A stretch of DNA of 64,000 bases. Source: an uncultured cyanobacterium (GTDB lineage Bacteria; Cyanobacteriota; Cyanobacteriia; PCC-9006; JAAUQQ01). The stretch spans positions 704,001 through 768,000 of the forward strand of contig OY970368.1 in assembly GCA_963718615.1 (NCBI GenBank), in the 5' to 3' direction. Positions 46,626-64,000 of the stretch are shown here, one piece after another. Each line of letters starts with the position of its first letter. Position 1 is the first letter of the stretch. Position numbers and translations under genes: made by a program. The notes under the pieces are model-generated. The model worked only from the letters and a program-made list of their open reading frames with translations. It was not told the origin of the DNA and made no database searches.

Positions 46626-49016
46626 TTACTGAATTACTCTAAAAACTGTTCGGAATACTTTAAGACTAAATATGCTTGGCAAAATTAAGCCAAGAAGACT
46701 TGGAACTATTGGAAGGAAGCCATTCCAGAAGATGAGTGTCCCCCAGGAAACAGTACAGAGTAAACAAAATAAAGCTACTCGTAAAAGAAGGCGCAACTTT
46801 GTTGCCGGTAGACCTAGGGCTAAAATAACACCATTGCAACTCCAAAAAAGAATCCAGAGATTGTCTGCTAACATTGGCCAGAACCAGAGCAACGGACGAT
46901 GCCCGACAGCAGCATCGATAATTTGACTGGTTACATGGGCTTGTAGCACAACCCCTGGAAGATCGTACCGGAAAGGCGTTCTATGGTAATCTCTATAGCT
47001 AGCTGCTGTGGTACCAATGAGCACAATCCGGTTTTTAATCGATTGTGCTGCAATTTCGCCATCGAGGACCTGTGAGAGTGAGACTGTCTCAAAGCTATTG
47101 ACCGGAGATGAACCTGGAATTTTCCGATACCGAAGCAAAATCTGTAATCCTCTAACATCAGCATTCAAGTAAATGCCTGGGCGAGTTTTGAGAGATGTTA
47201 GGGTAGCTTCTCCCAACTGCCAAGAATTACCTGTTGGAAACTGAAGCTGTATATCTTTTTCGCTTAAGTATCTTAGTGCGAGTTGTAAATTAAGAGAATA
47301 GGGAGGGACGCATTGACCAACTTCTGGCTGCATGGCGATCAGAGCACGCCGAACGACTCTATCTTGGTCGCTCATCGTATCGCTAAATCCGACAGATTTT
47401 AGGGGAAAGTTTTGGGGGGGAATGACTTCCGGCTTTGATGCAGCTATATCTCTAACTCGACAGGTTGTGATGAGAGGTGAGTTTGTGTTAGCCCATTTTG
47501 AAATATCATTAGGATTTGATAGATGAGGTTTCACTTCCTTAAGTAGCAAAGATTCATTCTCTCCTTGCTCAAAGGATCGATCGCGATAAATATCTAGGCC
47601 AATTACGGCTGCTTCTGCCTGATTCAATATCGTGAGTAATTGATTGAGAGCAGTAGGCGAAAGAGAATCAATCCTATCCTTCTGAGTAGGATGATAAAGG
47701 TCGTCTTCAGTAACTTCTACGATCAAGATACTGGGGTCGTATTCATCATTTGCAGGGCTCAATCGCACTATTACGTCATAGCTCCAGAGTTCAAGCTGTT
47801 GTAAAGCTCCGCTAAAGCGTAATCCGAGAACAGCGGCGGTTATCCCAATGCTTAGGGCTGCAATATAAAATACTTGGTGATAAGTTGGTAATCTTCGGAG
47901 AAAATCTCTCGATTGCAACGGAATCTCGGCGTTGTCTGACTGTAGATCGTGCCAAGTTGGGGGAGAGAAAGCGGGATTTTGGCAGATAATCGGAAGCCAA
48001 GTTGCACAAGGGAAATCATTTTCTAAGCTTTCTAGGCGATCGCGTGCCTGTCGCACTGCTGTATAAAGTGTTTTACCCCCAGCATAATCATGTAAAAAAT
48101 ACTGTAGGAACTTCTGAGCAACAATATCTGGTACCAGCTCCCGCATAAGAATGAGCTGAGGAATATTGAGTTCCTCTAGTTCCCAGGCTAATCCTAAGCC
48201 ATCACAGGAATTGAAAATAGCGAGCTGTAGCCCTCGACTAATTGCTTGTTTGAGAGATTTTCTAAGTTGTCCTATGGAAAGACTATCAGTTTCATTTAGC
48301 TGTATATACCCTATTGCATTGGATGTTTGACTGTGACCTGCAAAAAAGAGAATATCCCATGACTGGTGCCACAGCTTATCTGAAAATTCCTGGCGAGAAG
48401 GTTTGCGTAAAATTTCAACGTTGGCATTAGACAGTGCTCGTAGATCTATCTCATCTATCTCTGTATTAATACCCTGATTGTCACCAAAGATAGCTAAAAT
48501 ATTTACCTTTGGTGTTACTGGAGACTTAAGGCTTACGAATTTTGAATAGTCATTTTTGCAAAAACCCAGCTCTAATGTCGGGTATTGCTCCAGCTCCTCC
48601 CAGAGATGCCAAGGTAGTCGCCACAACTGTGGGTCATTGGCCTGAATGAGGATTCGACATTCCTGATCTGAAGCGAGTTCTCGATACAGCTCTCGTCGAA
48701 CTGGGTTAAAGCCGGGGTCAGCAAGCCACGTATCAATATCAGCCTTAAGACTGGCTGAGAGCTGTCTACATTCTTGGCGAAGAGAAGCCGCAGAGCTATC
48801 AATTCTCGCTGCTTTTGTTTTGATAGCCCGAACCTGCTTTCCGAGGGCTCGATAACTTTTACTCCATTCACAATAATGAGTTGCTAATTGTGGATAGAAA
48901 GGTAGGGATCCTGTCGATTGAAGATAGGGGGAACCCTGTTCTTCTCTGGCTTGGATTATGACTTTAAAGCCAGACTCTAAAGAACCATCAAAACTAAGTA
49001 TAATGAGCTTAGGCAT
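46626..49016 (-). CDS. CHAT (caspase/HetF-like) protease - TM - CHASE2 - 3TM membrane protein
   Basis: RLPWHLW, catalytic His ILFFAGHS and Cys IFNSCDG; TM helix; CHASE2 motifs IGLDIYRD, VGFSD, RIVLIG, PGVVLQA; C-terminal TMs with no further output domain. Confidence 0.9.
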   Translation of the reverse strand: MPKLIILSFDGSLESGFKVIIQAREEQGSPYLQSTGSLPFYPQLATHYCEWSKSYRALGKQVRAIKTKAARIDSSAASLRQECRQLSASLKADIDTWLADPGFNPVRRELYRELASDQECRILIQANDPQLWRLPWHLWEELEQYPTLELGFCKNDYSKFVSLKSPVTPKVNILAIFGDNQGINTEIDEIDLRALSNANVEILRKPSRQEFSDKLWHQSWDILFFAGHSQTSNAIGYIQLNETDSLSIGQLRKSLKQAISRGLQLAIFNSCDGLGLAWELEELNIPQLILMRELVPDIVAQKFLQYFLHDYAGGKTLYTAVRQARDRLESLENDFPCATWLPIICQNPAFSPPTWHDLQSDNAEIPLQSRDFLRRLPTYHQVFYIAALSIGITAAVLGLRFSGALQQLELWSYDVIVRLSPANDEYDPSILIVEVTEDDLYHPTQKDRIDSLSPTALNQLLTILNQAEAAVIGLDIYRDRSFEQGENESLLLKEVKPHLSNPNDISKWANTNSPLITTCRVRDIAASKPEVIPPQNFPLKSVGFSDTMSDQDRVVRRALIAMQPEVGQCVPPYSLNLQLALRYLSEKDIQLQFPTGNSWQLGEATLTSLKTRPGIYLNADVRGLQILLRYRKIPGSSPVNSFETVSLSQVLDGEIAAQSIKNRIVLIGTTAASYRDYHRTPFRYDLPGVVLQAHVTSQIIDAAVGHRPLLWFWPMLADNLWILFWSCNGVILALGLPATKLRLLLRVALFCLLCTVSWGTLIFWNGFLPIVPSLLGLILPSIFSLKVFRTVFRVIQ

Positions 49017-49044
49017 CGGCTAATACTATCAATGAAGTATAGAC

Positions 49045-50148
49045 CTAAAGAACGATCTTTTCTTCAAAAGTAAGACCATTCAAGCTGAGGTGCAGAATCA
49101 CAGCATCACCTTTCGTCCCTGAGAATTCCAATTGAAGATGACGATTATGCTGTTGGGCACAGGCGGCGAGCAGTTCAGAACGATTCGTATCTAGCAAGGC
49201 TAGTTTTAGGTTCTGGGGCAAGTACTCTCGACGAGGGCCTGGAATTGCATCAATAGAGATTTCAAGTGGTTCCTCAATGCCCTCAGCAGCACGAATTACC
49301 AATGCTACTGTCTGGTCAATATCCTCGTCGAGGTTTGGTGCCATTGTACCTCCATGTAAATTAGGATATAACGAAATAAGTTTATATCCAGAAACACAGT
49401 TAGATGGAGTGTGATGAAACTTAGATTGGAGCGAGTGGCCTCCAAAAAAGTCTTCCATTTTTTGTTGAAGCTCGATATTTTCTAGAGTTCGATAGGCGTA
49501 TGTAAGGGTTGACGGGTTGGAAGAAGTGGGATGTATGACTGCGTCGAGAGAAGACCAGCCAGAGGCAAAGAAGTCAGACCACCATTGTCTCAGCTCGACA
49601 AATGGTGATTTGGCAGTCGCAAGAAACTCAGGAAACTCATCTATACCTCGGAAGTTTTCAATAGAAAACAATTCAGAGTTCCGAGCTCCTGTCGTCTCTG
49701 GATTAAGGCAATTCAGAAAGCCGAGTAATATAGCTTGGTGTTGATCTAAATCGATTTCTACAGCAAAATATGCGATCCGGTTTTCCCAAGACTCCGCTGG
49801 CACTCGAATATGATGACTTCCCGGAAGAACTGGACAGCATTCAACGATCCCTAGATCAGGTAGGCGAATATCTGCAATGTCTAAGAGAATTCGCCGAAAC
49901 GGTTCCTGAAACTCGGTTGCTTGAGTATCAGATTCTATTCCTAAACATTGGAAATAGTGGTTGACAGCAAATCTCGCTAGGGCATTGTGATAGATCTGTT
50001 GCTGTCTAGGCATTGGACAGTTTTGAGCAAGTCGCTTCGCTTCTTGTTCAGCTTTGGCTGTGAGGACGATCGGAAAACTTGGTGTTGGTAAGGATTCAGG
50101 GCTGTACAAGAGCGATGAGTTCATAGTATATGGGGTGATAAGCTGCAT
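49045..50148 (-). CDS. DUF1822 family protein (candidate anti-sigma factor)
   Basis: QIYHNALARFAVNHYF, DIADIRLPDLGIVECCPV, VPAESWENRIAYFAVEI, ILLGF, YLPQNLKL, LQLEFSG. Confidence 0.85.
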   Translation of the reverse strand: MQLITPYTMNSSLLYSPESLPTPSFPIVLTAKAEQEAKRLAQNCPMPRQQQIYHNALARFAVNHYFQCLGIESDTQATEFQEPFRRILLDIADIRLPDLGIVECCPVLPGSHHIRVPAESWENRIAYFAVEIDLDQHQAILLGFLNCLNPETTGARNSELFSIENFRGIDEFPEFLATAKSPFVELRQWWSDFFASGWSSLDAVIHPTSSNPSTLTYAYRTLENIELQQKMEDFFGGHSLQSKFHHTPSNCVSGYKLISLYPNLHGGTMAPNLDEDIDQTVALVIRAAEGIEEPLEISIDAIPGPRREYLPQNLKLALLDTNRSELLAACAQQHNRHLQLEFSGTKGDAVILHLSLNGLTFEEKIVL

Positions 50149-50205
50149 TGTGGTGATGTGACAAAGGGCGGTGAAGATACCAATCGTTAGCTATTTGGAT
50201 GGTTT

Positions 50206-51396
50206 CTATTCTGGGTTTCGTACTGAATTCAGTTCGGGATTCCTATCTGAGAACGTTTGTGGCCACAGTACCATCATACTCCTTTCATAAAAGCTTCTAA
50301 GCTTCGTGGGGTCTACCTTTAGGGCATCACTAGGAATCTGCCAGAGATGTCCGGCATCTAAAAGGATTTTTGTTAACTCAGAAAATGTGATGCTTGGATA
50401 GTCTGGCATGACAATTTTGTACCGCTCATTACGAGTGACATCACGATAGCTAGGAAATCGCTTAACTCGGCTCCGGTGATCACTTTCCAGTTTCGCTTCA
50501 TCAATCTTAAATTTCTGCGCAATGTTTTCCCAGGACTCACCCTCAAACCGAGAAAACCGAATGGCATGAAGGGTTGATTTAGACTGCCCTTCAACGACTG
50601 GTGTCAAAAGATTATCAAGCCAGTTGCTTAAAAAGTTTCTGGGCGTCGTTAGTCTGTTAAAGCCGTATTGGTCAGCAATGTCTTGCCATGTTTTATTTTT
50701 TATTCGAGCTAGAACAATGTCTAGGAAGGTAATGTGTGGCTTATCTCGATTGGGAATTCGAAAAATATAGTCTTCTTTTAACCAGTCTAAAAGGTTACTT
50801 GTTGTAAAATCCGATGAATGACTAGGAACACGATCGAAATCAAAGTCTTGAACTGGTTTCCCGAATCTTTCTTGTCTTTTCAGATCAGTAGCCTGAGGGA
50901 TATGAGTTCGGTCAAAGCGAAAGTTAATCCACTTAATGAATTCACCTCGCTCAGCATCAAATTTATGGATGTTTTTACAAATCCAAAGCTGAAGAATGTT
51001 CTGAGCTTCGCGATAGGCTTCGTCTGAGGCAAAGTCGGGCCGTTTTTTGAGCCGATTGCTGAGGAATAGAGCTCGAAAGAGAATGTCAATCGCTGTTTGA
51101 AACTCCGGAGTTCCGAGTGCGTAACTTTGGACATGGAGAGCGATCGCCTTCATCTGTCGCTCTCCCAGTACGGCTTGCCAGGTCTTGGCAAGAAGCAAAG
51201 ATGAAATTTCGCTAAACCTTTGCTCGGAAAGCGGCCCTTGCTGTATCGTTTCTAGTAGAAGCACAGAAAGAGACTGACTTGCCAGTCTACTAATCTCTTG
51301 GTAGATATAAGGAGGTTTTCCCCGCTGGAGTAAGCGATAGAAAGCATTATGGCGGAGAAGCGCCTCAGCCATCTCCATGGAATCGAAATCAGTCAT
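50206..51396 (-). CDS. Cyanobacterial sigma-70-like factor with repeated C-terminal HTH modules
   Basis: Sigma2-like AYREAQ..LQLWICKNIHKFDAERGEFIKWINFRF; HTH-like TFLDIVLARIKNKTWQDIA and AIRFSRFEGESWENIA; ATG 51396 preferred because GTG 51423 lies inside the promoter motif. Confidence 0.7.
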   Translation of the reverse strand: MTDFDSMEMAEALLRHNAFYRLLQRGKPPYIYQEISRLASQSLSVLLLETIQQGPLSEQRFSEISSLLLAKTWQAVLGERQMKAIALHVQSYALGTPEFQTAIDILFRALFLSNRLKKRPDFASDEAYREAQNILQLWICKNIHKFDAERGEFIKWINFRFDRTHIPQATDLKRQERFGKPVQDFDFDRVPSHSSDFTTSNLLDWLKEDYIFRIPNRDKPHITFLDIVLARIKNKTWQDIADQYGFNRLTTPRNFLSNWLDNLLTPVVEGQSKSTLHAIRFSRFEGESWENIAQKFKIDEAKLESDHRSRVKRFPSYRDVTRNERYKIVMPDYPSITFSELTKILLDAGHLWQIPSDALKVDPTKLRSFYERSMMVLWPQTFSDRNPELNSVRNPE

Positions 51397-51416
51397 GCTA
51401 TGCCTATTGCATGGAA

Positions 51417-51460
51417 CCTTCACAAACTTAATCCTCGTCTACATGGGTAATTTACACGTT
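51417..51460 (-). promoter_or_regulatory. Shared promoter motif, copy 1 (sigma-like operon)
   Basis: AACGTGTAAA-TTACCCATGTAGACGA-GGATTAA-GTTT-GTGAAGG. Confidence 0.7.
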
Positions 51461-51653
51461 CTGCTTTAGAATTTTCAAATTATTTTGCGGATGAAGAAAA
51501 TATTTCCTGTAATCTAATGTCATAGTATGTATTATTTCTACAGTAAACTCGTTTGCATTATCTCCCAATTTGGCGTCAGATCTACTAGATAGCCCGTATA
51601 AATAAATTCGTGATCGTTGCTAAAATTACTGAGAATATTGCCAAAGGTATCAT

Positions 51654-52475
51654 ATGAGAAAATTATTGCCCTTGATGATTTTGTTCTCTGGGATTGTGGT
51701 TGCTTCCACGTCACTAGCCCTAGGACAGCCCGAATTGATCCAATCGGCTGAGACGAAAGCTACGAAGAAAAAAACGCCCTATGTCCCCCCGGACCCCCCT
51801 CCAGGTTTGAATGCTCCCGGAAATCGTAGCGAGGCTGGGAGTCGGGGTAGTGATGGACAGATTTTGCCGCTGGCTCAGCAATTGGTTGCCATTGTTCCTG
51901 AGTTTGAGCGGGTAGTAGAGTCTTTGCCTATTCCACAGGTATGGGTCCTCACGGCTTCTCGCTATCCGACTTTTTGGTTTTATGTTCCCCTTGCTGAAGA
52001 TCCTACGCTTAGGTTTGTAATTGAACGTAGGAACCCATCGGAACGCGGTCGGAAATACATAACCGTTTACCAGCAGGAAATCCCTATTTCTCGGGAAGGA
52101 TTCCTCTCTATTACGCCTGCTGATTCATTTGAAGGGTTAAAAGAAGGGGAGCTCTATCGTTGGTCTTTGAGTTCGATTAAGCCTAGTTTAACGAAAAGTT
52201 ATCGTTCGTTAAAGCCGATTAAGGGTTGGGTTGAGCTGCGATCGTTACCGAAAAATATGAGTGAACAGCTCAAGCTTGCTTCTCCATCAGAAGCTATAGA
52301 GATTTATGGGCGGAATGGAATTTGGCTGGACAGTTTTGATGCTGTAGCCCAGCACTACCGTACTGCTCCGGACCGTTACATCATCTTGTGGCAGGATTTT
52401 TTAGAAGGGGTTGGACTTGAGGCGTTATCAAAGAAACCAGTATCAAGTGGTGGCTCAGTCGTTCGCCACGATTAA
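51654..52475 (+). CDS. DUF928 family secreted protein
   Basis: Signal peptide; PGNRSEAGSRG, PTFWFYVP, YRWS, GWV, YGRNGIWLD. Confidence 0.88.
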   Translation: MRKLLPLMILFSGIVVASTSLALGQPELIQSAETKATKKKTPYVPPDPPPGLNAPGNRSEAGSRGSDGQILPLAQQLVAIVPEFERVVESLPIPQVWVLTASRYPTFWFYVPLAEDPTLRFVIERRNPSERGRKYITVYQQEIPISREGFLSITPADSFEGLKEGELYRWSLSSIKPSLTKSYRSLKPIKGWVELRSLPKNMSEQLKLASPSEAIEIYGRNGIWLDSFDAVAQHYRTAPDRYIILWQDFLEGVGLEALSKKPVSSGGSVVRHD

Positions 52476-52538
52476 GTCATCATTCTGATCTTTTACTCAG
52501 AACCGTCACAAGGTAATCTTTCGATCAATTTTTCAAGC

Positions 52539-52582
52539 AACCTGTAAAAACTCAGTATCCTCACTGATTAACTAAGTGCAGC
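52539..52582 (+). promoter_or_regulatory. Shared promoter motif, copy 2 (FG-GAP gene)
   Basis: AACCTGTAAA-AACTCAGTATCCTCAC-TGATTAA-CTAA-GTGCAGC. Confidence 0.7.
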
Positions 52583-52620
52583 TTCCCGAAGGGAGTTAAA
52601 TCTTAGCCAGGGTAATACAA

Positions 52621-54864
52621 ATGAGTTTTGGACCAACGTTTGATCTTGCTAGCCTTAACGGCTTCAATGGATTTTTTATTGATGGAATCAGCACAGGCGA
52701 CGGATTGGGTCGTTCAGTTAGCACAGCAGGGGACTTTAACGGAGATGGTATTGATGACCTGCTGATTGGAGCACCTGGAGCGCTGGGTGCTAGACCTAGC
52801 GGTAGTTTGGCGGCAGGTGAGAGTTATATTATTTTTGGTGCGAGAGGAATTGGTAACAGTGGAAGCTTTAACCTGAGTAACTTAAATGGCAGTAACGGTT
52901 TTGCGCTAAAGGGCATTGACTCTCAAGACGATTCTGGTTACTCGGTGAGTGGGATTGGTGATATTAATAATGATGGTTTCGATGACATTATTATTGGTGC
53001 CTATAATGCGGATGCACCTGAGGCTTTTTCGGGGGAAAGTTATGTCGTTTTTGGGCGTCAGAGTGTTGGCTTGGGCGCTAGCTTAAACCTCAGCAGCTTA
53101 AACGGAAGCAATGGTTTTATTGTCAGGGGCCTTAATAACAGCGATTTTTCTGGTGTTTCTGTGAGCGGGGCTGGAGATGTCAATGGCGATGGCTTTGACG
53201 ATTTCATTGTTGGAGCTCCCGGAGCTAATCCGAATGGCTTTGACTCGGGACAAAGCTATGTAATATTTGGTGGTAGAGGCATTGGCATCACAGGCAGTTT
53301 TGATCTCAGGAGTTTGAATGGTAGCAATGGTTTTGCCCTAAACGGCAGTCGCTTCAGTAATTTCTCAGATCGCGCTGGAGCCTCGGTCAGCAGCGCTGGA
53401 GATTTCAATGGAGATGGATTTGATGATTTAATCATCGGGGCTCCTGATGGTGAGGTCAACGGCGTCAAGACAGGCAAAAGCTACATTGTCTTTGGCCGTA
53501 GCAGCTTTACGAGTGGCACGATTGAGTTAGCGAGTTTGAATGGCAACAATGGTTTTGTGCTAAGAGGTGTCGATCGCCTCGATGACACCGGCTCAGAAGT
53601 CAGCAGCGCCGGAGATATCAATAATGATGGCTTTGATGATGTTTTGATCCATTCGGAAAATAATGGAGGAGAAACCTATGTTGTCTTTGGAGGAAGCAAC
53701 GTTGGTCTTAGCGGTAGTTTTAACTTAGCTGACCTCAACGGCAGTAACGGATTTGTCATTCGTGGGAATGGTGGAGGGGGGTATGGTCGAGATGTGAGCG
53801 AGGTTGGCGATGTAAACAATGATGGGATTGATGACATCATTATTGGCTCATCTTTTTTCGGCAGCTATGTGATTTTTGGGGGTAGTGGGATTGGCAGCAG
53901 TGGCAGTTTTAACCTCAGTGATCTCAATAGCCAGAATGGTTTTGCACTCAGCGTTGAGTCTCGTTATCCAGGCCGCGCCGTTAGCGGTCTGGGTGATATC
54001 AATGGTGATGGGATTGATGATCTGATCACTGCAAATCGTTCCACAGGAGCGAATGCAGGGCGAAGTTATGTTGTGTTTGGCCGCGATACGACGGCACGGG
54101 TTCCATTTGCTAAGTTCTTCAGTTTTGACCAGTGGGTCAAGTTTCAGCGGTTTGATGATGGTGTCAACATTCCATTGACGCCTGCGGAAGTGGGAGGGGT
54201 TTCGCTTCAGTCTTTGTTTGATGAGGCGTTTTATCTCGATCGCAACAGAGATGTGAAAGCGGTAGTGGAAAACGGTGCTCTAACCTCTGGTTATGAACAT
54301 TTCATCAGACATGGACGATTTGAAGGGCGTGACCCTAGCGTACTCTACAGCGAAGAAGCCTATTTGCGCCAATATGCAGATGTGGTGGCGGCGGTGAGAG
54401 CTGGAGCCTTTAGCAGCGGTTTTGAGCACTATATCAACTATGGTCATATCGAAAATCGAGTTGCCAGCACTGCGTTTAATCCAATTGATTATCTAACTCA
54501 AAATCCAGACGTCGCTGGAGCTGTTACCCAGGGCTTCCTGAGTAGTGGTTTTGAGCATTTTGTCGAAAGTGGTGCCAATGAGGGGCGCGTTTCGGGGGTG
54601 ATGTTGTTTGAGGAGGCGTTTTATTTGGCCCAAAATCCGGATGTGGCGCAGGTTGTAACTGGGGGGAGCTTCAGCTCTGGGCTTGAGCACTTTGCACGCT
54701 ATGGTCAACGGGAAGGACGAATTTCCAGCAGCACCTATCGTGAAGGTGGCTACCTGGGTGCAAATTCTGATGTGGCGGCAGCGGTGAGTGGCGGCGGTTT
54801 TTCAAGTGGCTTTGAACATTTTGTGGAATTTGGGCGAATTGAGGGGCGATCGCTAGGCCTATAG
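52621..54864 (+). CDS. FG-GAP/integrin-alpha beta-propeller surface protein with C-terminal FDEAFYL...EGR repeats
   Basis: Seven GD(F/I/V)N(G/N)DG(F/I)DD repeats; five YLxxxxDV...SGxEH repeats. Confidence 0.88.
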   Translation: MSFGPTFDLASLNGFNGFFIDGISTGDGLGRSVSTAGDFNGDGIDDLLIGAPGALGARPSGSLAAGESYIIFGARGIGNSGSFNLSNLNGSNGFALKGIDSQDDSGYSVSGIGDINNDGFDDIIIGAYNADAPEAFSGESYVVFGRQSVGLGASLNLSSLNGSNGFIVRGLNNSDFSGVSVSGAGDVNGDGFDDFIVGAPGANPNGFDSGQSYVIFGGRGIGITGSFDLRSLNGSNGFALNGSRFSNFSDRAGASVSSAGDFNGDGFDDLIIGAPDGEVNGVKTGKSYIVFGRSSFTSGTIELASLNGNNGFVLRGVDRLDDTGSEVSSAGDINNDGFDDVLIHSENNGGETYVVFGGSNVGLSGSFNLADLNGSNGFVIRGNGGGGYGRDVSEVGDVNNDGIDDIIIGSSFFGSYVIFGGSGIGSSGSFNLSDLNSQNGFALSVESRYPGRAVSGLGDINGDGIDDLITANRSTGANAGRSYVVFGRDTTARVPFAKFFSFDQWVKFQRFDDGVNIPLTPAEVGGVSLQSLFDEAFYLDRNRDVKAVVENGALTSGYEHFIRHGRFEGRDPSVLYSEEAYLRQYADVVAAVRAGAFSSGFEHYINYGHIENRVASTAFNPIDYLTQNPDVAGAVTQGFLSSGFEHFVESGANEGRVSGVMLFEEAFYLAQNPDVAQVVTGGSFSSGLEHFARYGQREGRISSSTYREGGYLGANSDVAAAVSGGGFSSGFEHFVEFGRIEGRSLGL

Positions 54865-54995: not shown

Positions 54996-55039
54996 AACGT
55001 GTAAAAGCTCAGTGCTCCCACGGATTAATAGAGTGAAGG
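54996..55039 (+). promoter_or_regulatory. Shared promoter motif, copy 3 (CsgG-like gene)
   Basis: AACGTGTAAA-AGCTCAGTGCTCCCAC-GGATTAA-TAGA-GTGAAGG. Confidence 0.7.
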
Positions 55040-55096: not shown

Positions 55097-55861
55097 ATGA
55101 CCCCGACAGCATTGAAAGTGTTAAGTCATCACGCGACAGCCGCGTTATTCGCTGTGAGTGTAAGCTTGGTCGGAGCAACCCAAACCCTAGCACAGACTAA
55201 ACCCACCATTTCTGTGCCCGAATTTAAGAATGAAAGCACTTGGTGGTGGTGGCGGGGAGGCACATCCAGAGAACTAGCGGATGCCTTGAGCAATGAGTTG
55301 AGTTCAACTGGCAGCTTTACGGTTGTTGAACGTCAAAAGCTAGATACGGTTCGAGATGAGCAAGTCCTGAATAATGAGGGTCTTGTACGGCAAGGAACTG
55401 GGGCTAAAACGGGGCAGCTAACGGGCGCACAATATATTGTTATGGGTAAGGTGACGTCCTATGAGGAAGGTGTCAACGGGGAAGAAAGCAAGAACAGAAC
55501 CTGTGTTCTCGGCATTTGTCGTGGTGGTGCCAAGCAAAAGCAGCAAGCTTATGTGGCGATCGATCTGCGTGTCGTCAACTCAACAACCGGAGAAGTAGCC
55601 TATGCGCGAACAGTTGAAGGACTCGCGACTTCAGAATCTGAGTCCAAATCAGGCGGAATTACTATTGGCCCTATCACTACGGGCGGAAGCTCTAGCAAAA
55701 CCACGAAAGCCCCGGTTGGAAAAGCGCTTCGTTCTGCGCTGGTCGAAGCCACTAATTACCTTGACTGTGTGATGGTGAAAAAAGGAAGCTGTATTGCAGA
55801 ATTTGAGAGAAAAGAAGCAGTTCGCCGTGAGAATACTGGTGGTGTTCTAGATCTGCAATGA
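55097..55861 (+). CDS. CsgG/HfaB family protein
   Basis: Signal peptide; ISVPEFKN, FTVVERQKL, GQLTGAQYIVMG, AIDLRVVNSTTGEV. Confidence 0.88.
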   Translation: MTPTALKVLSHHATAALFAVSVSLVGATQTLAQTKPTISVPEFKNESTWWWWRGGTSRELADALSNELSSTGSFTVVERQKLDTVRDEQVLNNEGLVRQGTGAKTGQLTGAQYIVMGKVTSYEEGVNGEESKNRTCVLGICRGGAKQKQQAYVAIDLRVVNSTTGEVAYARTVEGLATSESESKSGGITIGPITTGGSSSKTTKAPVGKALRSALVEATNYLDCVMVKKGSCIAEFERKEAVRRENTGGVLDLQ

Positions 55862-56329: not shown

Positions 56330-56935
56330 GTGAAGCTTTTTTCTTGCAGCATGAAGAGTTCGCTAACAAGCTTGACAATTGCCTTCTTTGGTATTGGATA
56401 CTTTTCAAGTATAGCCATTGCTCAACAGCCTCAAATCGCTCGAACCGAATCTAACTTAATTCCACTGGAACAGGCCGATTATATTCTTGAACTTCCAAAG
56501 GGAACCTATCGTATTGATGTGGTTTCGTCCAGAGTTTCTAGCCCATTCATCGCTATTTTTGAGGAAGACACTGACAGACAAGTTAAGTCGTCTACCGCAG
56601 ACGCTCACACATTTATATCTGTCAATTTATCTGGGGGTAAATACCGGGTCAGAGTAGGTTTTATAGAGTGTCTTTCGGCAAACCATCGATGCTCTGCTGA
56701 CATCTATTTCAGAAATTCTTCTGGATCTTATTTTGTTCCAAAACTAGACATAGAGCCTCGGAGTTTGAAGCTTGCCCGACAAGTATATCAAGAAAGAAAG
56801 TCTGAACTGAGTGAAGCGCGTCAAGGATGTCACAGTCATTCAAGTATTTTCAATAATACATGTGGCCGAGTACAGCAGTTAGAAGATGCTATACGAAATA
56901 GTGGAATGTCTCCATCTTTGTTTAGAGGATTTTAG
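56330..56935 (+). CDS. Secreted hypothetical protein (possible PPC-like beta domain)
   Basis: Signal peptide ending AIA; GTYRIDV and GKYRVRV strands; Cys pairs. Confidence 0.6.
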   Translation: MKLFSCSMKSSLTSLTIAFFGIGYFSSIAIAQQPQIARTESNLIPLEQADYILELPKGTYRIDVVSSRVSSPFIAIFEEDTDRQVKSSTADAHTFISVNLSGGKYRVRVGFIECLSANHRCSADIYFRNSSGSYFVPKLDIEPRSLKLARQVYQERKSELSEARQGCHSHSSIFNNTCGRVQQLEDAIRNSGMSPSLFRGF

Positions 56936-57055
56936 TAGCTAATGTGGAAAACAAAAAATCAGTAGATTTTCACTCTAATACAAGAATCGAATTTCAGAAA
57001 TCATAAAGTTCTCACTTCTACACCTCACTCACTACAATCGCATCAAGCTAGAAAG

Positions 57056-57583
57056 ATGATGAAAATGCACAAGTTTGGTCTCTATGCTTCTACAGCAATT
57101 TTATTGAGTGGTGTGATTGCTAGCTCGGCGATCGCTCAAACAAAATTAGCACTGACCCTCAAACCCTACGACGAAAAACACAAATATGTTGACTTCTCTT
57201 CAGACTCCGGCACCTGTGAAGGTACAGTCATGCAAGCTGGCATGGCTTGCGTTCTTAATATTAAAAAAAACGACTCGAAATTTAGTCGCGTGGCAGTGCT
57301 AAGTCTAGTGAATGTTGTTCAGACACTAAGATCTCGAACCGATATTAATGTTCGTGAATTTAAACCAAATAAAGCAAACATTGCTTTTTTGATAACGGTT
57401 AACATGTACGTTGACTATACAAAAAGTACAGTGCCGCTGGCACAGGCGGGCTTGACGAATCAAGGAGAATTAATCGTGATCCCAGAATATGGTGAATACG
57501 GGCTTGAAGAATCTAAAAATGTTCTAGAACGAGAGTCGAAGGCGATCGCCATTCTAATCAAAGCCCTAAAAGAAACAAAATAA
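57056..57583 (+). CDS. Secreted hypothetical protein
   Basis: Signal peptide ending AIA; 175 aa ORF. Confidence 0.6.
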   Translation: MMKMHKFGLYASTAILLSGVIASSAIAQTKLALTLKPYDEKHKYVDFSSDSGTCEGTVMQAGMACVLNIKKNDSKFSRVAVLSLVNVVQTLRSRTDINVREFKPNKANIAFLITVNMYVDYTKSTVPLAQAGLTNQGELIVIPEYGEYGLEESKNVLERESKAIAILIKALKETK

Positions 57584-57646: not shown

Positions 57647-60600
57647 TCAGAGCCAATTACCGACTAAAACAAATGCGGCCCAAAAATAGGGCTCCGATGT
57701 ATCCAGTTCATCCGAGTCCTTCACATAAAGCTGAGCCCGACGCAACGCCTCAGCACGGCTCACAGAGCTATCTGCAAGTTCTTGGTAAAACCGCTGCATC
57801 AGAAATGCTGTAGACCGGTCATCAACAAACCAAAGGCTGCCCAGCGTACTCCTTGCGCCCGATCGCACTGCAATCCCCGCCAAACCCAGTCCTGCCAGTT
57901 CATCCCCCTTGGCGGTTTCGCAGGCACTCAGTACCAAAAGTTCGATAGGCTGGTCAGAGCCCAGCCCCTTGCCCTGGAGAAGAGCACTCAGCTCATTCGC
58001 ATTTAGCCGATCATCCGCCGTGACAACATAGGTGTCTTCTAACGTCGAGCCAAAAACACCATGGGTTGCCAAATGAACCACCGGGAATGAGAGTTCATTG
58101 ACCTTAGTTTCGAGATTTGTCTGCGTAAAGTCTCCGTCTAATAAGACCTGGCTACCTGGGGCTTGAGCCTGAATTGATTCAACTTCAGGTTTGGCGAAGC
58201 CTAGTGCTTTAAAAGGTCCATTATCTACCGTTAGCCCACCTAGAATTACCTTAACATTACGACGGGATAGCGATCGCGAATCCAAAAGCTGTAGACTTGG
58301 GGAGGTAGCGATCGCATACTTCTCAATCAAGTACTTCTCTTCCCGTTGGTCATACAAAACCGCCATGGGAATATTCTGAAGCGAACCACTCGACAGAAAC
58401 AAGAGTGTTTCTACACCGCTTGCTTCTAGATCCGCTTCAAAGGGTCGAATGAGAATATCGTAGAGTTGTCCGCCAATGAGTACTGTCTCGTCTCTCGCTT
58501 CTTGGGGTTGCTTCAGGCCAACTTGCAAAATTTCTTCTCCATCGCTTCTAGAGCAGTTGGTACTAGACAATTCGTTAGTATCATCAAACTCAGCTTGCTG
58601 ACAGGCCGTGCCCCGAGAAGAGACAAGACTTCTCAGTGAGAACAAATCTTGATCAAACTCGACTAAATTAACCGAACTACTTTGATGCTTCCAGATAGTA
58701 TTGTTTGATAAATCATTGACTTTATTAGAGACATTACTTTTTGTTCTAGAAACTTTTGTATTCGGCAAGCCAACGACAACTTCGACTCGATCTTTGATGA
58801 TAATTGGGTAAATAATCGCGGCTTTTGGATCAATGTCTTCAATCTTAATCTCACTAGCCAGTAGACAGTCAGATCGAAAGAAATTGGTCAATTCTGCGAC
58901 CTGAAGCGAATCTGCAATCTGAATAGCCCGATCCAAATAGGAATTAAAGTTTTCTTGAACTAAATTTATCGTCTGGCCTGTCAACTGTTTTTGAGTCTGT
59001 TTCTTTTTCGAATGCTCTAAAATAGAATATTGACTTGGTTCTAATGATACTTTTTGATGGTTTGCTTCAATCAACAGCTCAATTAAACCTTGATAGATAG
59101 GTTTAATCTGATTTTGAAAAGAGAGCTGGTTCTGACGATTGATTGTAATTAGATCACCCTTCAAAAGATTGATTTGAGTCACCGAGGACTCGTAGGCGGC
59201 GATCGCCTCCATCAAAAGCTGATCCCGTTTCTCAAGCTGATCGATTGGTAAAAGCGATCGTTTGAACCTGAGCAACCTCCCCTGCTGCCAAAGCCAGGGG
59301 TAAGTCATAAACCCAAGATTGAGGCCCTCCGCTCGTTCTAATGCCTGCTTGGTGAAAGCCTCTGCCTGGGCTAATTGCTGCTGTTTTTCGATAGGTGCGA
59401 GCGCCTCCAGAAATCGATATTCATACAGTCTTCCCCAGTACCCTAGAGCATAGGCTTCAAACTGACCGTCCTGGAGTGATTTCGATTCTGCAAGTAGCTG
59501 CTGAATTAGCCTTTCTACTGTTTTTTCTGAAATGATATCGTATTGATTTTTTCCATCTCTGGGCTTCATTAGATTTAATGCATCAGCGATCAAGGTGACT
59601 TGTAATCGAAACTTGGCGCGGTTGGCTGGAATAGTTTCTAGTAATGCGATCGCTTGAGTGATTTCTGAGGCGATCGCTTGACCCGAACGGAGTTGGCTCG
59701 CAGTATCAGGTTTAAGCTGTTGCTGAGTTCGCTGTTGAATCATCTGCTGAATCAGATTGATTTGGGCTTGTAGTTCAATCTCAGGGGGAATAGACAGAGC
59801 CATCGCCTGCCGCAGAGAGGCTTGCGCATCTTCTGAGTTTGCTGCCATGCTGCTGATGCTGATCAGGGAGAGTGCAGCTTCGATGGGGAAATTTTCCTGT
59901 TGCGCGATCGTCAAACTTTGTTCTAAGCAATCCTGGGCACTCTGACATAATCCCGTTTCATTCCGGCCAGAGAACTGATACAGTAAGTTACCTAACTGCC
60001 TCAGGACTAAAGCTTTGTTCTGAGGATCAATCAATGTATTAGTCTGAGAAACTAGCATCTGACCAGCTGAATTGAGACTTTCCATCGCCTGTGGATACAA
60101 ACCACTCAGACGCAAAAGTTCAGCTTGATTAAGCCGATTGCGCAGGAAAGCACTAGCATTTTTGGGCAGTTTTAGATTGAGCCGCTGATAGGACTTTTCA
60201 GCGGTACGGAGTTTCTGTAAGGCAGTTTGGTATTGCCCCTGCGCGCGATAGAGCTGCCCTTCGGTACTGAAGCTCTGGGCCAAGACTCGTTGTTGTGCCG
60301 TGCTAGGAGATAATTTTTCAAGCTGGGTTTGGGCTTGAGTGAGAATTTGTTCAGCGGCTCCATAATCCCCAAGCTGGAGATGGGCAAGGGCGATGTTGTT
60401 GAGGGCGATCGCCTGGGCCAGCCTATCACCCTTTTGCTCAGCCCACTGCTCAGCTTTTTCCCAGTGTATCTTGGCTTCAAAAAATCGACCCGATTGGTAG
60501 GCTGCACGTCCAGCCTCCAAAAAATTCTGATTAGAAGTTTCTACAACTGATGGAGAAGACTGATTAAGTTCCAGGAAAAATCCCACAGGTGTCTGTTGGG

Positions 60601-60679
60601 CTAAGCTCGGAGCGCTGATGCATAGCCACAGGGTTAGACTCATCCAAGCGATGAATCTCCAGATGCGAGAATCGGTCAT
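57647..60679 (-). CDS. Exported TPR-CHAT (caspase-like) protease
   Basis: Signal peptide MTDSRIWRFIAWMSLTLWLCISAPSLA; TPRs; VVHLATHG (His), LLVLSACETA (Cys), LGSLWFVDD, PYFWAAFVLVGNWL; ATG overlaps the upstream stop (ATGA). Confidence 0.92.
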   Translation of the reverse strand: MTDSRIWRFIAWMSLTLWLCISAPSLAQQTPVGFFLELNQSSPSVVETSNQNFLEAGRAAYQSGRFFEAKIHWEKAEQWAEQKGDRLAQAIALNNIALAHLQLGDYGAAEQILTQAQTQLEKLSPSTAQQRVLAQSFSTEGQLYRAQGQYQTALQKLRTAEKSYQRLNLKLPKNASAFLRNRLNQAELLRLSGLYPQAMESLNSAGQMLVSQTNTLIDPQNKALVLRQLGNLLYQFSGRNETGLCQSAQDCLEQSLTIAQQENFPIEAALSLISISSMAANSEDAQASLRQAMALSIPPEIELQAQINLIQQMIQQRTQQQLKPDTASQLRSGQAIASEITQAIALLETIPANRAKFRLQVTLIADALNLMKPRDGKNQYDIISEKTVERLIQQLLAESKSLQDGQFEAYALGYWGRLYEYRFLEALAPIEKQQQLAQAEAFTKQALERAEGLNLGFMTYPWLWQQGRLLRFKRSLLPIDQLEKRDQLLMEAIAAYESSVTQINLLKGDLITINRQNQLSFQNQIKPIYQGLIELLIEANHQKVSLEPSQYSILEHSKKKQTQKQLTGQTINLVQENFNSYLDRAIQIADSLQVAELTNFFRSDCLLASEIKIEDIDPKAAIIYPIIIKDRVEVVVGLPNTKVSRTKSNVSNKVNDLSNNTIWKHQSSSVNLVEFDQDLFSLRSLVSSRGTACQQAEFDDTNELSSTNCSRSDGEEILQVGLKQPQEARDETVLIGGQLYDILIRPFEADLEASGVETLLFLSSGSLQNIPMAVLYDQREEKYLIEKYAIATSPSLQLLDSRSLSRRNVKVILGGLTVDNGPFKALGFAKPEVESIQAQAPGSQVLLDGDFTQTNLETKVNELSFPVVHLATHGVFGSTLEDTYVVTADDRLNANELSALLQGKGLGSDQPIELLVLSACETAKGDELAGLGLAGIAVRSGARSTLGSLWFVDDRSTAFLMQRFYQELADSSVSRAEALRRAQLYVKDSDELDTSEPYFWAAFVLVGNWL

Positions 60680-63600
60680 GATTTTGTCTCCTGGATTTGG
60701 GTGCGATCGCCTGAACAAACCTGTGGGGAATGGTTTGGATAAACTGGTCGGGCTGCTAAAAGCTGAATATTTCCACGGGCATCTCGACTCCAGTCTTGGG
60801 CTTCTAAAATGGGGATTGGCAGAAGAGAGACAGACTCTTGAATCGTGGGAGTGGGCTGTGCTAGCGCTACAGATTCGATCTGTAAATCTGGTCCTAAATC
60901 GGCTTGAAACGGAGCGTCTTGGGCGGAACGTTCGGGGCTACTGGGAATTCCCCAGCGTCCGCGTTGCACAAAGCGACTGCTACGGGTAGGATTTGCCACT
61001 AGCTCACAGCGCCGATCGATCAGTGCTGTTGGGTCAACTAGGCTGCTAGGCAATTCGCTTAATCCTTGGGAGGGATCCGCATCAATAATATCGAGCGCGA
61101 TGTTGCCCTGGGCTCCAAATTCTGAGCTGGCTGTGATATCGCTTAGAAGCGTCAGTTGCGGACGAAACTTTAGGCCAATAATTGACTGCCCGGTGATGTT
61201 GATATTACCTCCGTTTCCTCGCACAGCATTGGCAGTGATGTCGCTGTTCTCACGCGGTATGCCCAGCAGGAAGGGAACAGTCAGGTCGATGTTGCCGCCG
61301 TTGCCACTGCCCCCAGCATTCGTGGCAATTTTGCTTCCGTGCCTCAACAGCAAGGTTTCGTCAACGCTGAAACGAAGGTTGCCGCCTTCGCCGGAGGCCG
61401 TGGAGGCGCTGAGGCGGCTTTGGTCGTAGAGGGCGATCGCCCGTGCATCAATTTCTAAATTGCCACCATCACCGACTCCAGAACTGCTGACGCTGGCTTC
61501 GGCTTGCCGCAGATTGAGCTGCCCTGTTTCGATCTCCAAATTTCCGGCCTTACCTGCGCTAGAGGATCGCGCCACAACCTGAGCCTGATTTTGCAAGGTA
61601 ATGCTTTGGGGCGCAATTAGACGCAAGTTGCCACCGTTGCCCTCTCCTGTCGTGGAGGTGGAAAGTTGCGCATTGTTTTGCAGTGTAAATCTTTGGGTCT
61701 CAACCATAAGGTTACCCGCAAGGCCACTACCGCTGGTTTCAGCAGAAAGGCTGCCTTCGCCACTAATACTGACGGAGTTGGGTGCCGTGATTAACAAGCT
61801 GCCGCCCTTGCCGCTGCTAGAAGTTGAGGCCGAAACACGGGATTGCTCTCGGAGGTTGATGGTGAGGTCATCGCTGGTATTAGACCGCAGCGTGAGCCGC
61901 CCCGCCTGAGCTTCTCCTTGGGTTTCGGAGAGCACTTGGACGGTGCCAAATAGGTTCATTTCGTTGGCGTTGAGGGTGATGTTGGCGCTGGGTTCGAGGG
62001 TATTGGCCGGTGGTGTAGCGGTGGCGGTGGCAGTGGTGGTGAGGCGGGTACCTTGGTCGAGGGTGAAGCGATCGGTGGTGACGGTGACGTTGCCTGCGGA
62101 GCCGGTAGCGCTGGTTTGAGCGTTGAGCACACCGTTACCTGTGATATTGATGGCTGTCGGAGCTGCGAGAATGATATTGCCCCCGTTGCCGGTACTTCGG
62201 GTCTCAGCTGTAATTTGGCTAACGAATTGGCTAGTATCCGGAATACTTGAGAGATTATTCTGAAAATTTATATTGAGAATATCGCTATTGAAGGCAGAAA
62301 GGGTGATGTTACCTGCTTTGCCGCTGCCTGTGGCAGAAGTAGCGATTTGACCGCCATCAAGCAGTGAGATTTGTGGGGTTTCAATAAAGATATTTCCTGC
62401 GTTGCCAGAACTTTGAGATTGAGCAGAAAAACCTGTACTAACTGGCAAACTGTCAGTTAGTTGAACATTCAAGATATATTCGCCAGGGTCATAAGAAACA
62501 ATTCGTAGTGCATAACGTCCTGGTTTCTCAAAAATAAATTCTCCTAGACTGAAGTCAAAGCGGGAACCATTCGAATCATCTTGATCGTTCAGAATCTGAC
62601 CATTTTCGTCAATTAGGTCAACAAATAAAAATCGAGAAGTTGAGTCAAGAGGCGTTTTCCATCTAAGTCGCACGCCAGCTGAGGCCACATTAAAAGCATA
62701 AACATCTTTGTCTCCAAATTCTAGATATTCTGTTCCGGAAATATCACTCTCATCAAGATAGCCTTCAATAGACACGTAAGGTACTTGGTTGGAAAGCTCA
62801 ATTTCAGGATTATCAGCATCGTTTATATCTACACCAAAGGCAGAATCTAAGTCTTGAGCATTCTTAAAATCATCGTTAAATCCTGAACGTTCTTGAATTT
62901 TGGCATTTGCAGATAACTGCTTTGAAGGAAATATCAAAGCAGTTCTACCATCCACCACTAAACCTTCTAATGATTGAACAATGATATTTCCTCCACTCCC
63001 CCGAGAACCAGGGAGAGATGCCGTAGAAACCACACTATTTCCAAATAGATCTAATGTTCCTTCAGAGAGCAAAATAACGTCGCCAGCATCTCCCAATCCA
63101 CCAGTAATAGTGACAATACTGCTATCCAGAATCGTGATATCTTTCTTAGAGAGCAACACTACATTACCGGCAATTTCATCTCCAAAGTTAGTTGTGTCAA
63201 CTAAGGTAAATCCTTTTAGAAGAATTGACTCTCCTTCAAGTTCAATGTTCCCCCCTTTACCATTTGCACCTGGTTCAATAGCTGTCGTTAACCGGGAGTT
63301 GTCAAGACTTACGGTCTTCTCAGAACTCAGATAAATCCCTCCCGAAGAGCCTTCTCCAGCTATGCTTGTAGATGCCGTAAAGTTTTTCAATTCGATAGAT
63401 GGAGACAAGATTTGTATCTCTCCTGAATCTCCATTCATATTGATAACACTAGAACTGAAATCAATATTGCGTAAGGCTAATACTCCATTGTATTGAGAGA
63501 CACTGATCTTGCCAGACTGCGCAGTTTCTCTTATGGTTCCTGAGATGCCTGTCTCTCCAGTAAAATCTTCAAGCGTATAAAAACTCCCAAATCTCTTTTC

Positions 63601-64000
63601 AACATTTACAGATGCAGAGGTTTCATGAAGTCCTTCTACAAAAGACCTGACATTGCCAATTCTTATGCTATCTCCCGATTTTACTGAAATATCTCCACCA
63701 TTAGAAGAGACTTCAATATTATCAGTACTTCCTCCTGTTAGTTCATCAGAAGTTGGATATTGTATCTGACCTAAAAATGAAACGGCACTTGAGCTAATTA
63801 GAGTGCTAGTATATGTAGACAAATTCCCGATATCGACCGAACTGTCCGAGTCAATGATGATATCTCCTGCGGCAGCCGATAATTGAATTTCTCCAATTTT
63901 CCCACCTTTTCCGGACCAGTAAGAGAGTAGGTCTGAAGATGCAGATAAGGTTATATCAGAATTTATATACGAAGATATATCTTCCGTTTTAGTTAGGCTT
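60676..64000 (-). CDS. Filamentous haemagglutinin-like (two-partner secretion) exoprotein; 5' end outside window
   Basis: Frame is open to the window edge; GxGGNI beta-helix repeats; C-terminal SDITANA..GNGGNI, SDITASS, C...SRFVQRGRWGIP, EAQDW. Confidence 0.9.
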   Translation of the reverse strand, partial: SLTKTEDISSYINSDITLSASSDLLSYWSGKGGKIGEIQLSAAAGDIIIDSDSSVDIGNLSTYTSTLISSSAVSFLGQIQYPTSDELTGGSTDNIEVSSNGGDISVKSGDSIRIGNVRSFVEGLHETSASVNVEKRFGSFYTLEDFTGETGISGTIRETAQSGKISVSQYNGVLALRNIDFSSSVINMNGDSGEIQILSPSIELKNFTASTSIAGEGSSGGIYLSSEKTVSLDNSRLTTAIEPGANGKGGNIELEGESILLKGFTLVDTTNFGDEIAGNVVLLSKKDITILDSSIVTITGGLGDAGDVILLSEGTLDLFGNSVVSTASLPGSRGSGGNIIVQSLEGLVVDGRTALIFPSKQLSANAKIQERSGFNDDFKNAQDLDSAFGVDINDADNPEIELSNQVPYVSIEGYLDESDISGTEYLEFGDKDVYAFNVASAGVRLRWKTPLDSTSRFLFVDLIDENGQILNDQDDSNGSRFDFSLGEFIFEKPGRYALRIVSYDPGEYILNVQLTDSLPVSTGFSAQSQSSGNAGNIFIETPQISLLDGGQIATSATGSGKAGNITLSAFNSDILNINFQNNLSSIPDTSQFVSQITAETRSTGNGGNIILAAPTAINITGNGVLNAQTSATGSAGNVTVTTDRFTLDQGTRLTTTATATATPPANTLEPSANITLNANEMNLFGTVQVLSETQGEAQAGRLTLRSNTSDDLTINLREQSRVSASTSSSGKGGSLLITAPNSVSISGEGSLSAETSGSGLAGNLMVETQRFTLQNNAQLSTSTTGEGNGGNLRLIAPQSITLQNQAQVVARSSSAGKAGNLEIETGQLNLRQAEASVSSSGVGDGGNLEIDARAIALYDQSRLSASTASGEGGNLRFSVDETLLLRHGSKIATNAGGSGNGGNIDLTVPFLLGIPRENSDITANAVRGNGGNINITGQSIIGLKFRPQLTLLSDITASSEFGAQGNIALDIIDADPSQGLSELPSSLVDPTALIDRRCELVANPTRSSRFVQRGRWGIPSSPERSAQDAPFQADLGPDLQIESVALAQPTPTIQESVSLLPIPILEAQDWSRDARGNIQLLAARPVYPNHSPQVCSGDRTQIQETKS

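Follow-up and report, generated by a model that had tools for sequence, protein, structure and literature searches.

In classical regulated proteolysis, for example that of RseA by DegS and RseP, an anti-sigma factor is degraded in response to an extracytoplasmic cue, and an autoregulated extracytoplasmic function (ECF) sigma factor acts on envelope genes. In type III-E Craspase, a protease of the CHAT family probably cuts a protein that keeps an ECF-like sigma factor in check, the trigger being RNA-guided target binding; this system, reportedly described by Strecker et al. in Science in 2022, is said to comprise Cas7-11, the TPR-CHAT protein Csx29, Csx30 and CASP-sigma. In Anabaena PCC 7120, HetF consists of an N-terminal CHAT domain, a transmembrane (TM) segment and a periplasmic TPR domain, and cuts PatU3 between Arg117 and Ser118 in the context NYR/S (the slash marks the cleaved bond), a reaction blocked by the substitutions R117A, R117D and R117H (Xing et al., PNAS 2022, PMC9457339). 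HetZ has been characterized by cryo-EM and transcription assays as an ECF-type sigma factor with three insertion domains and its own promoter, while PatU3, co-transcribed downstream of hetZ, binds and inhibits HetZ and is likely its anti-sigma factor (Hu et al., PNAS 2026, PMC13342950). The combination of these findings from the two papers into one route from protease through anti-sigma factor to sigma factor is made in this analysis; the sections of the 2026 paper on HetZ and PatU3 make no mention of HetF. Here we examine an operon in a 64,000-nucleotide stretch of DNA from an uncultured cyanobacterium (contig OY970368.1; the whole stretch is termed the window), which encodes, in order, a sigma-like protein, a DUF1822 protein and a sensor-protease that joins a CHAT domain to a CHASE2 domain. 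Our best working model for this operon, held tentatively at somewhat below an even prospect and drawn by analogy, is a HetF/PatU3/HetZ-like proteolytic anti-sigma switch.

A preliminary description of the window had already proposed that the protease cuts an inhibitor and so frees the sigma factor, and the Anabaena proteins provide this logic with a full experimental precedent (PMC9457339, PMC13342950). The further claim that no characterized pathway has this composition overstates its novelty, because exactly this gene set was described, in silico, in the sections on EACC2 of a computational catalogue (Kaur, Iyer, Burroughs and Aravind, eLife 2021, PMC8195603). The proteins in those sections begin with a constant EACC2 domain, continue with a caspase and end in a C-terminus that differs between them, TM plus CHASE2 being one such ending, and their genes adjoin those for ECF sigma factors and DUF1822 proteins. 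The published set thus resembles that of the window in its EACC2-caspase-TM-CHASE2 architecture, in its DUF1822 and ECF sigma neighbours, and in coupling proteolysis to a sigma output. The composition has therefore been predicted in print, and the present locus is a further, conserved instance. The same sections call DUF1822 a TPR protein and, unlike the present analysis, give no promoter, targets, cleavage site or DUF928 link (PMC8195603). New here are a private promoter-like motif, a conserved arginine in DUF1822, and the pairing of DUF928 with CHASE2 irrespective of output domain. A full-text literature search on DUF1822, DUF928, CHASE2 with orthocaspase, and EACC2 found no experimental study.

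Genes were called from a list of open reading frames (ORFs) together with Pfam and NCBIfam scans of the 12 ORFs in the 43–64 kb part of the window, and all genes named in the preliminary description were recovered in place. The operon occupies 46626–51396 on the minus strand, with gaps of 57 nt between the sigma-like and DUF1822 genes and 28 nt between the DUF1822 and CHAT genes. The sigma-like ORF can also be read from an alternative GTG at 51423 (50206–51423, 405 residues). Transcribed divergently from the operon are genes for a DUF928 protein, an FG-GAP protein, a CsgG-like protein and two small ORFs; the FG-GAP and CsgG-like genes, absent from the preliminary description, share an upstream motif with the operon. 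The features on which the argument depends are as follows.

46626..49016, minus strand: sensor-protease, 796 residues (Pfam CHAT, E 3e-13; CHASE2, E 3e-58)
49045..50148, minus strand: DUF1822 protein, 367 residues, proposed anti-sigma factor or adaptor (PF08852, E 1.1e-36)
50206..51396, minus strand: probable divergent ECF-like sigma protein, 396 residues from the ATG at 51396 (remote profile similarity)
51429..51460, minus strand: motif copy 1, candidate autoregulated promoter (conserved intergenic block, exact pattern)
51654..52475, plus strand: secreted DUF928 protein, 273 residues, proposed periplasmic CHASE2 partner (Pfam DUF928, E 4e-31)
52539..52570, plus strand: motif copy 2, one mismatch (pattern scan)
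52621..54864, plus strand: FG-GAP repeat protein, 747 residues, candidate regulon member (Pfam FG-GAP, E 1.3e-48, 7 stretches)
54996..55027, plus strand: motif copy 3, exact (pattern scan)
55097..55861, plus strand: CsgG-like envelope protein, 254 residues, candidate regulon member (Pfam CsgG, E 3.8e-48)

The sensor-protease contains a CHAT domain at residues 98–340, CHASE2 at 393–730 and no other Pfam domain, in agreement with the earlier proposal that the protease is the only output domain of the sensor. The His/Cys dyad, likewise reported as intact, is confirmed in the translation as His228 in FFAGHS and Cys271 in FNSCDG. Because one TM helix (381–399 by hydropathy) precedes CHASE2 and three (within 720–779) follow it, CHAT is placed in the cytoplasm and CHASE2 in the periplasm. 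When the protein was aligned with seven relatives, the N-terminal ~100 residues, FFAGHS and the Cys of FNSC were conserved in 8/8, whereas the C-termini varied, comprising CHASE2 in six, a periplasmic-binding domain in one and a soluble form in one. A constant N-terminal domain, a caspase and a variable C-terminus correspond to the published EACC2 layout, a match made by description; a search with residues 1–135 returned only the sensor-protease itself and one orthologue. The protein is not a HetF orthologue, as the HetF model NF045509, which requires 1200 bits, matches it at 16.6 bits (E 0.0018) and covers no more than the CHAT core. In both proteases, nevertheless, an N-terminal CHAT domain in the cytoplasm is joined through a TM segment to a domain in the periplasm; they differ in that HetF carries periplasmic TPR rather than CHASE2, and in that hetF is not encoded beside hetZ-patU, whereas the window protease adjoins its sigma-like and DUF1822 genes.

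The DUF1822 protein matches its Pfam family at 127 bits (cut-off 25) over two stretches, 28–146 and 281–369, and has no TM segment by hydropathy. Between a conserved W..GW block and a variable linker lies Arg220 (TYAYR/TLEN; codon 49489–49491), in the 12th most conserved column; of 58 DUF1822 family members, 48 have R and three have K at this position. The position recalls the HetF cut of PatU3 after Arg117 and suggests Arg220 as a candidate cleavage site. The local context is YR/T in the window protein and commonly F/L/Y-R-S across DUF1822, to be compared with NYR/S in PatU3. The back-translated PatU3 site TNYRSPET itself matched 0/401 cyanobacterial genomes.

The first gene of the operon probably encodes a very divergent ECF-like sigma factor that stands outside the membership of curated models, a view that depends on remote profile similarity. 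The protein does not pass the curated Sigma70_r2/r4 and TIGR02937 models, and only seven close homologues exist in an index of 5.8 billion proteins. An exhaustive HMMER search with a profile of these homologues collected 293 proteins, many of ~210 residues and aligning to query residues 80–265; 31 of the 50 relatives scanned gave weak Sigma70_r2 and/or r4 matches in ECF order, four of them above the Pfam cut-off. We used three profiles: A2 for the close family of the sigma-like protein, A3 for a paralogue family bearing sigma region 4, and A4 as a broader profile of 74 sequences. Against the PDB, nothing relevant was found with A2, while A4 placed ECF sigma factors at the top, with SigK (E 0.0031) aligned across sigma2–sigma4 and the D..RG..aW motif region displayed. 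In addition, the cyanobacterial clusters adjacent to orthologue P0011 in the ESM Atlas are auto-named sigma-70 family (0.96–0.97), and proteins of this type directly precede DUF1822 in six other genomes. The approximate layout comprises an N-terminal extension, a sigma2-like region at ~125–175 and a sigma4-like helix-turn-helix at ~215–265, followed by a C-terminal extension of 130 residues (268–396) in which the sigma4-like unit is repeated twice more (z 3.8 and 4.75; 0/300 shuffles reach either score).

Neither a HetZ nor a PatU family was among the NCBIfam matches (E ≤ 10) of 17 proteins of the sigma-like and DUF1822 kinds, and PDB profile searches with the sigma-like families listed no HetZ chain. 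In Calothrix NIES-4101, nine sigma-like genes matched the A3 profile strongly, each of them in linkage with DUF1822 or EACC2-CHAT, and there were two weak short-ORF matches besides (268 and 206 residues); none was identified as HetZ. Nor does the locus resemble type III-E loci in content: the type III-E sigma model NF041236 does not match the sigma-like protein of the window and reaches only 20.7 bits (cut-off 100) with a paralogue, and general Pfam/NCBIfam scans of the 12 ORFs contained no Cas family, CRISPR arrays not having been searched separately.

The gene set recurs widely. The source genome (6.1 Mb) carries seven DUF1822 genes. Upstream of each, on the same strand, lies an ORF matched by the sigma-like profiles (7/7), and an EACC2-CHAT gene follows DUF1822 in 5/7; its product has CHASE2 in four cases and a periplasmic-binding domain in the fifth. 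The genome has at least eight paralogous modules. DUF1822 belongs to seven of them and is accompanied by the protease in five of the seven; one further module has the sigma-like and protease genes only. The sigma-like proteins of paralogous modules A, B and C pass TIGR02937 (cut-off 42.9 bits) at 92, 67 and 78 bits, two others falling below it, and the window protein is far more divergent than the sigma-70-family members among them. In module E the sigma-like gene (genome 2941674–2942976) is split over two frames, the halves matching the profile at E 1e-135 and 3e-25, and is either a frameshifted pseudogene or the product of a sequencing error.

Beyond this genome, DUF1822 was detected in 78/121 sampled genomes of the class, often in multiple copies. 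When the best DUF1822 locus per genome was taken from 29 other genomes, a sigma-like gene lay upstream in 29/29 and an EACC2-CHAT gene downstream in 14/29. DUF1822 is directly downstream in 6/6 loci related to the sigma-like gene of the window, and follows 8/9 sigma-like genes in Calothrix NIES-4101. Two close orthologous loci (L016 and L017; 49–52% identity) share the TPR-CHAT, DUF928, sigma-like, DUF1822 and CHAT-CHASE2 genes, while FG-GAP, CsgG-like and FHA (filamentous-haemagglutinin-like) genes are absent from both. On a Nostoc punctiforme plasmid, the trio bears the RefSeq names sigma-70 family sigma factor, DUF1822 family protein and CHASE2 domain-containing protein, with an FHA-type gene 2.2 kb beyond it. 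Since the families are conserved together across cyanobacteria (7/7 here and 29/29 elsewhere for the sigma-like and DUF1822 genes), the lack of co-localization that the preliminary description had named as grounds for abandoning its pathway is not what we find. A separate arrangement was seen in three Nostocales genomes with distant sigma-like/DUF1822 relatives, which have no downstream CHAT gene; the same loci encode, on the same strand and ~1.2–4 kb upstream of the sigma-like gene, a pentapeptide-repeat protein of 941–947 residues with a C-terminal CHAT domain.

From these features we infer the binding, cleavage, direction of control and nature of the signal that make up the working model. 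Periplasmic CHASE2, together with secreted DUF928, would sense an extracytoplasmic cue and thereby activate the cytoplasmic N-terminal CHAT protease. CHAT would then cut DUF1822 after the conserved Arg220, at the start of the variable linker. DUF1822 would otherwise keep the divergent ECF-like sigma factor inactive, and its cleavage would free the sigma factor. As in the HetF/PatU3/HetZ case, the gene for the proposed inhibitor lies downstream of that for a probable, atypical ECF-like sigma factor with extra domains, the proposed cleavage is at an Arg site, and the candidate promoter is non-canonical. The scheme as proposed also shares with RseA-type pathways an extracytoplasmic cue, anti-sigma proteolysis, an autoregulated ECF sigma factor and envelope genes, but the candidate anti-sigma factor DUF1822 lacks a TM segment, and in place of a serine protease or site-2 metalloprotease there is an enzyme of the caspase fold, with a Cys-His dyad, that forms one protein with the sensor. 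With Craspase the scheme shares a CHAT protease and a proposed inhibitor of an ECF-like sigma factor, and differs in having a membrane sensor as the trigger.

Several observations weigh against this model. The sigma-like label is the weakest point of the gene assignments: the protein has no Pfam or NCBIfam match at E ≤ 0.01 (best loose match E 0.11), hhalign finds no link between A2 and the sigma-r4-bearing paralogues A3 (probability 0.35%), and A4 aligns with the paralogue family at a probability of only 51%, on the sigma4 helix-turn-helix. Once DUF1822 clusters are set aside, the Atlas entries closest to the DUF1822 homologue P0166 are named PatU, at 0.83 and 0.82, scores that lie below the bar of 0.9 and count as a language-model lead only. 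A DUF1822 profile (A5) recovered only DUF1822 genes in Calothrix NIES-4101, with no PatU-like gene at E ≤ 10. In favour of the model, the arginine is present in 14/14 loci with a downstream CHAT gene versus 9/15 without one, but this contrast is drawn between related genomes and across an uncertain alignment in a variable region. No CHAT gene adjoins 15/29 of the sigma/DUF1822 pairs elsewhere or 2/7 in this genome, so the pair can do without a dedicated protease or be served by one from another locus. Conversely, a sixth CHAT-CHASE2 gene (genome 2405761–2408250) has an adjacent DUF928 gene and neither a sigma-like nor a DUF1822 gene nearby, and the eighth module (genome 5649343–5654488) encodes a CHAT-CHASE2 protein (859 residues), DUF928 (300 residues) and a 477-residue sigma-like protein with no DUF1822. 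The gene after the eighth module is convergent and encodes a 319-residue protein with a weak SH3 match.

A different wiring, which we consider unlikely, would make DUF1822 an adaptor or co-activator, with CHAT cutting either itself or the sigma-like protein, for instance to remove its extra C-terminal helix-turn-helix repeats. It is consistent with the EACC2 sections of the published catalogue, which propose autopeptidase activation and a sigma-factor output, not DUF1822 cleavage (PMC8195603). The two-repeat C-terminal extension is missing from the shorter sigma-like relatives (240–290 residues), as would suit a removable segment, and this wiring would also suit both the genome module that has CHAT-CHASE2 and a sigma-like protein but no DUF1822 and a Calothrix sigma-like gene followed directly by a soluble EACC2-CHAT gene. 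Against it, the order of sigma gene then partner gene, and the PatU3 case of an inhibitor cut after Arg, fit an anti-sigma role, and the conserved Arg, invariant (14/14) where a CHAT gene follows, lies where two domains of DUF1822 meet.

In the last step of the proteolytic anti-sigma model, the freed sigma factor would use a private promoter composed of a –35-like GTGTAAA, a 17-nt spacer and a –10-like GATTA. It would act on its own operon, and so feed back positively on itself, as well as on the FG-GAP gene and on the CsgG-like gene together with two small exported proteins. The motif AACGTGTAAA-N17-GATTA is the sole block of intergenic DNA that the window shares with L016 and L017. Across the 6.1-Mb genome it occurs as two exact copies, one with one mismatch and one with two mismatches, and the three best copies all fall within 3.6 kb of this locus. 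Each is oriented toward a gene, at 32 nt from the sigma-like ATG, 50 nt from the FG-GAP start and 69 nt from the CsgG-like start; 100 shuffles of the window gave 0 matches. L016 and L017 hold two copies each, one of which precedes the sigma-like gene. A generic sigma-70 promoter scan returned 13 sites against 15.3 expected. On the strength of its sequence and position, copy 1 is a candidate autoregulated promoter of the sigma operon. Because one private motif precedes the sigma operon and the FG-GAP and CsgG-like genes, the output of the pathway is probably exported or envelope proteins, which lends support, as a probable outcome, to the surface-protein output suggested earlier.

The motif might instead be the operator of another regulator or locally duplicated intergenic DNA, with the FG-GAP and CsgG-like genes as unrelated neighbours, a reading that we regard as improbable. 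Copies 2 and 3 have 11/17 spacer bases in common, plus further flanking similarity, so that they perhaps reflect one duplication and are not fully independent. Moreover, the motif-marked genes are not homologous across the orthologous loci: L016 and L017 lack the FG-GAP and CsgG-like genes, and the second L017 copy precedes a non-homologous 203-residue ORF. Yet ahead of the sigma-like gene the motif is conserved, at a fixed spacing, in three genomes that have no other alignable sequence in this intergenic region, a second copy stands in promoter position in each orthologous locus, and no other copy with ≤1 mismatch exists in the genome. The 17-nt spacing and the 32–69 nt to the start codons also fit a promoter.

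DUF928 is linked to the sensor and not to the protease. The window protein has a signal-peptide-like N-terminus by translation and hydropathy, and genome-wide a DUF928 gene lies within 5 kb of 10/19 CHASE2 genes, and a CHASE2 gene within 5 kb of 11/16 DUF928 genes. The share of CHASE2 genes with a DUF928 neighbour, by output domain, is as follows.

CHAT: 5/6
GGDEF, EAL or cyclase: 4/5
no output domain: 1/2
Ser/Thr kinase: 0/2
His kinase: 0/2
AAA_35: 0/2

As the outputs of these CHASE2 proteins vary (GGDEF, EAL, cyclase, CHAT), DUF928 appears to be a sensor partner that is not peculiar to the protease-sigma pathway. The role first given to DUF928, as a possible route for the signal sensed by CHASE2, thus stands as regards the CHASE2 link, but not as a component specific to this pathway. 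The two AAA_35-CHASE2 proteins (genome 2754294–2756777 and 4179970–4182828), neither with a DUF928 neighbour, combine an N-terminal ATPase-like domain with a C-terminal CHASE2 sensor in an unusual architecture.

These pairings also bear on the proposal of a conflict or immunity system, in which a caspase-like death or defence effector would be triggered by invader cues and the sigma factor would mount a defence regulon. The EACC sections of the catalogue do rank these systems among counter-invader, apoptosis-like systems of multicellular bacteria (PMC8195603), and the modules are multi-copy with varying sensors (seven DUF1822 genes here, ~13 in Calothrix) and occur on plasmids, one of them conjugative (Nostoc punctiforme); IS605-type and PD-(D/E)XK transposase genes lie just past the FHA gene. 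A defence function is nevertheless quite unlikely, in that PADLOC defence models match 0/11 scanned proteins, periplasmic CHASE2 and secreted DUF928 also serve GGDEF, EAL and cyclase outputs, a pattern indicative of environmental signalling, and the motif-marked targets are envelope or exported proteins (FG-GAP, CsgG-like) and not nucleases or pore toxins. A chance neighbourhood is rejected by the recurrence of the gene order in 29/29 other genomes.

A broader reading of the anti-sigma model, possible though doubtful, is that sigma-like/DUF1822/EACC2-CHAT sets form a diversified family of which the Anabaena system, where HetF acts on PatU3 and PatU3 inhibits the sigma factor HetZ, is one 'institutionalized' member. 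DUF1822 would then be a PatU-like anti-sigma factor cut after one conserved Arg by a sensor-fused protease, and each module would have a private promoter and a small regulon of exported proteins. If so, filamentous and unicellular cyanobacteria would bear up to a dozen parallel 'caspase-gated sigma' channels, whose inputs would be received through CHASE2 with DUF928 or through other periplasmic domains. Should the model hold, such channels, which would employ a caspase-fold protease, would join two-component systems and classical ECF/anti-sigma pairs as a third major transmembrane-to-transcription route of cyanobacteria. The locus offers handles in its 15-base bipartite motif, the candidate cleavage residue R220 and the catalytic Cys C271.

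The remaining features of the locus lie downstream of the CsgG-like gene.

56330..57583, plus strand: two small ORFs, 201 and 175 residues, with signal-peptide-like N-termini (translations, hydropathy)
57647..60679, minus strand: exported TPR-CHAT protease, 1010 residues from the ATG at 60679 (Pfam CHAT, E 5.5e-59; TPR_12)
60676..64000, minus strand: TpsA-type (filamentous-haemagglutinin-like) exoprotein, C-terminal part (repeat-rich translation)

The CsgG-like protein has a signal-peptide-like N-terminus, and the two small ORFs, for which no Pfam family was found, may be co-transcribed with its gene, which lies upstream of them. Convergent to the DUF928/FG-GAP/CsgG-like group are the TPR-CHAT and TpsA genes, the stop of the latter overlapping the start of the former as ATGA, an arrangement of translational coupling. 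The TPR-CHAT translation shows the dyad motifs HLATHG and LSACE and a signal-peptide-like leader, MTDSRIWRFIAWMSLTLWLCISAPSLAQQ. The window holds the C-terminal 1107 residues of a 1931-residue TpsA, whose gene extends 2471 bases past the window end; its two-partner secretion (TPS) domain (PF05860, E 1.2e-37, residues 27–207) is therefore encoded beyond that end. No TpsB gene lies near it, the three ShlB genes of the genome being at 1.07, 2.17 and 5.70 Mb, compared with 0.70–0.77 Mb for the window. Pfam and the translations thus corroborate a divergent secreted DUF928, an exported TPR-CHAT protein with intact dyad and an FHA-like exoprotein, as first described. The suggestion that FHA and TPR-CHAT might supply the signal was not supported: TPS or exported-CHAT genes do recur near paralogous modules (TpsB and a C-terminal-CHAT protein at module C, TpsA at E, two TPR-CHAT at F), but no motif copy precedes the DUF928, TPR-CHAT or FHA gene, and the link of TpsA and TPR-CHAT to the sigma pathway is only positional.

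Just past the window end, beyond the start of the FHA-like gene, are an IS605 OrfB/TnpB-type gene and a PD-(D/E)XK transposase-family gene (L015:7054–8993), and a further DUF928 and TPR-CHAT pair also lies beyond that end (L015:13548–17134). Rfam gave 0 matches across 44–64 kb of the window. Just upstream of the module, at 43045–46002 on the plus strand, is a gene for a 985-residue protein with a C-terminal Peptidase_C39_2/AvrRpt2-like papain-fold domain (E 6e-19) and a long N-terminal part that matches no family. Further away, at 29321–33962 on the plus strand, a bacteriophytochrome-type histidine kinase gene (PAS_2-GAF-PHY-HisKA-HATPase) is followed by a hybrid response-regulator/kinase gene; these are ordinary signalling context, unrelated to the sigma module.

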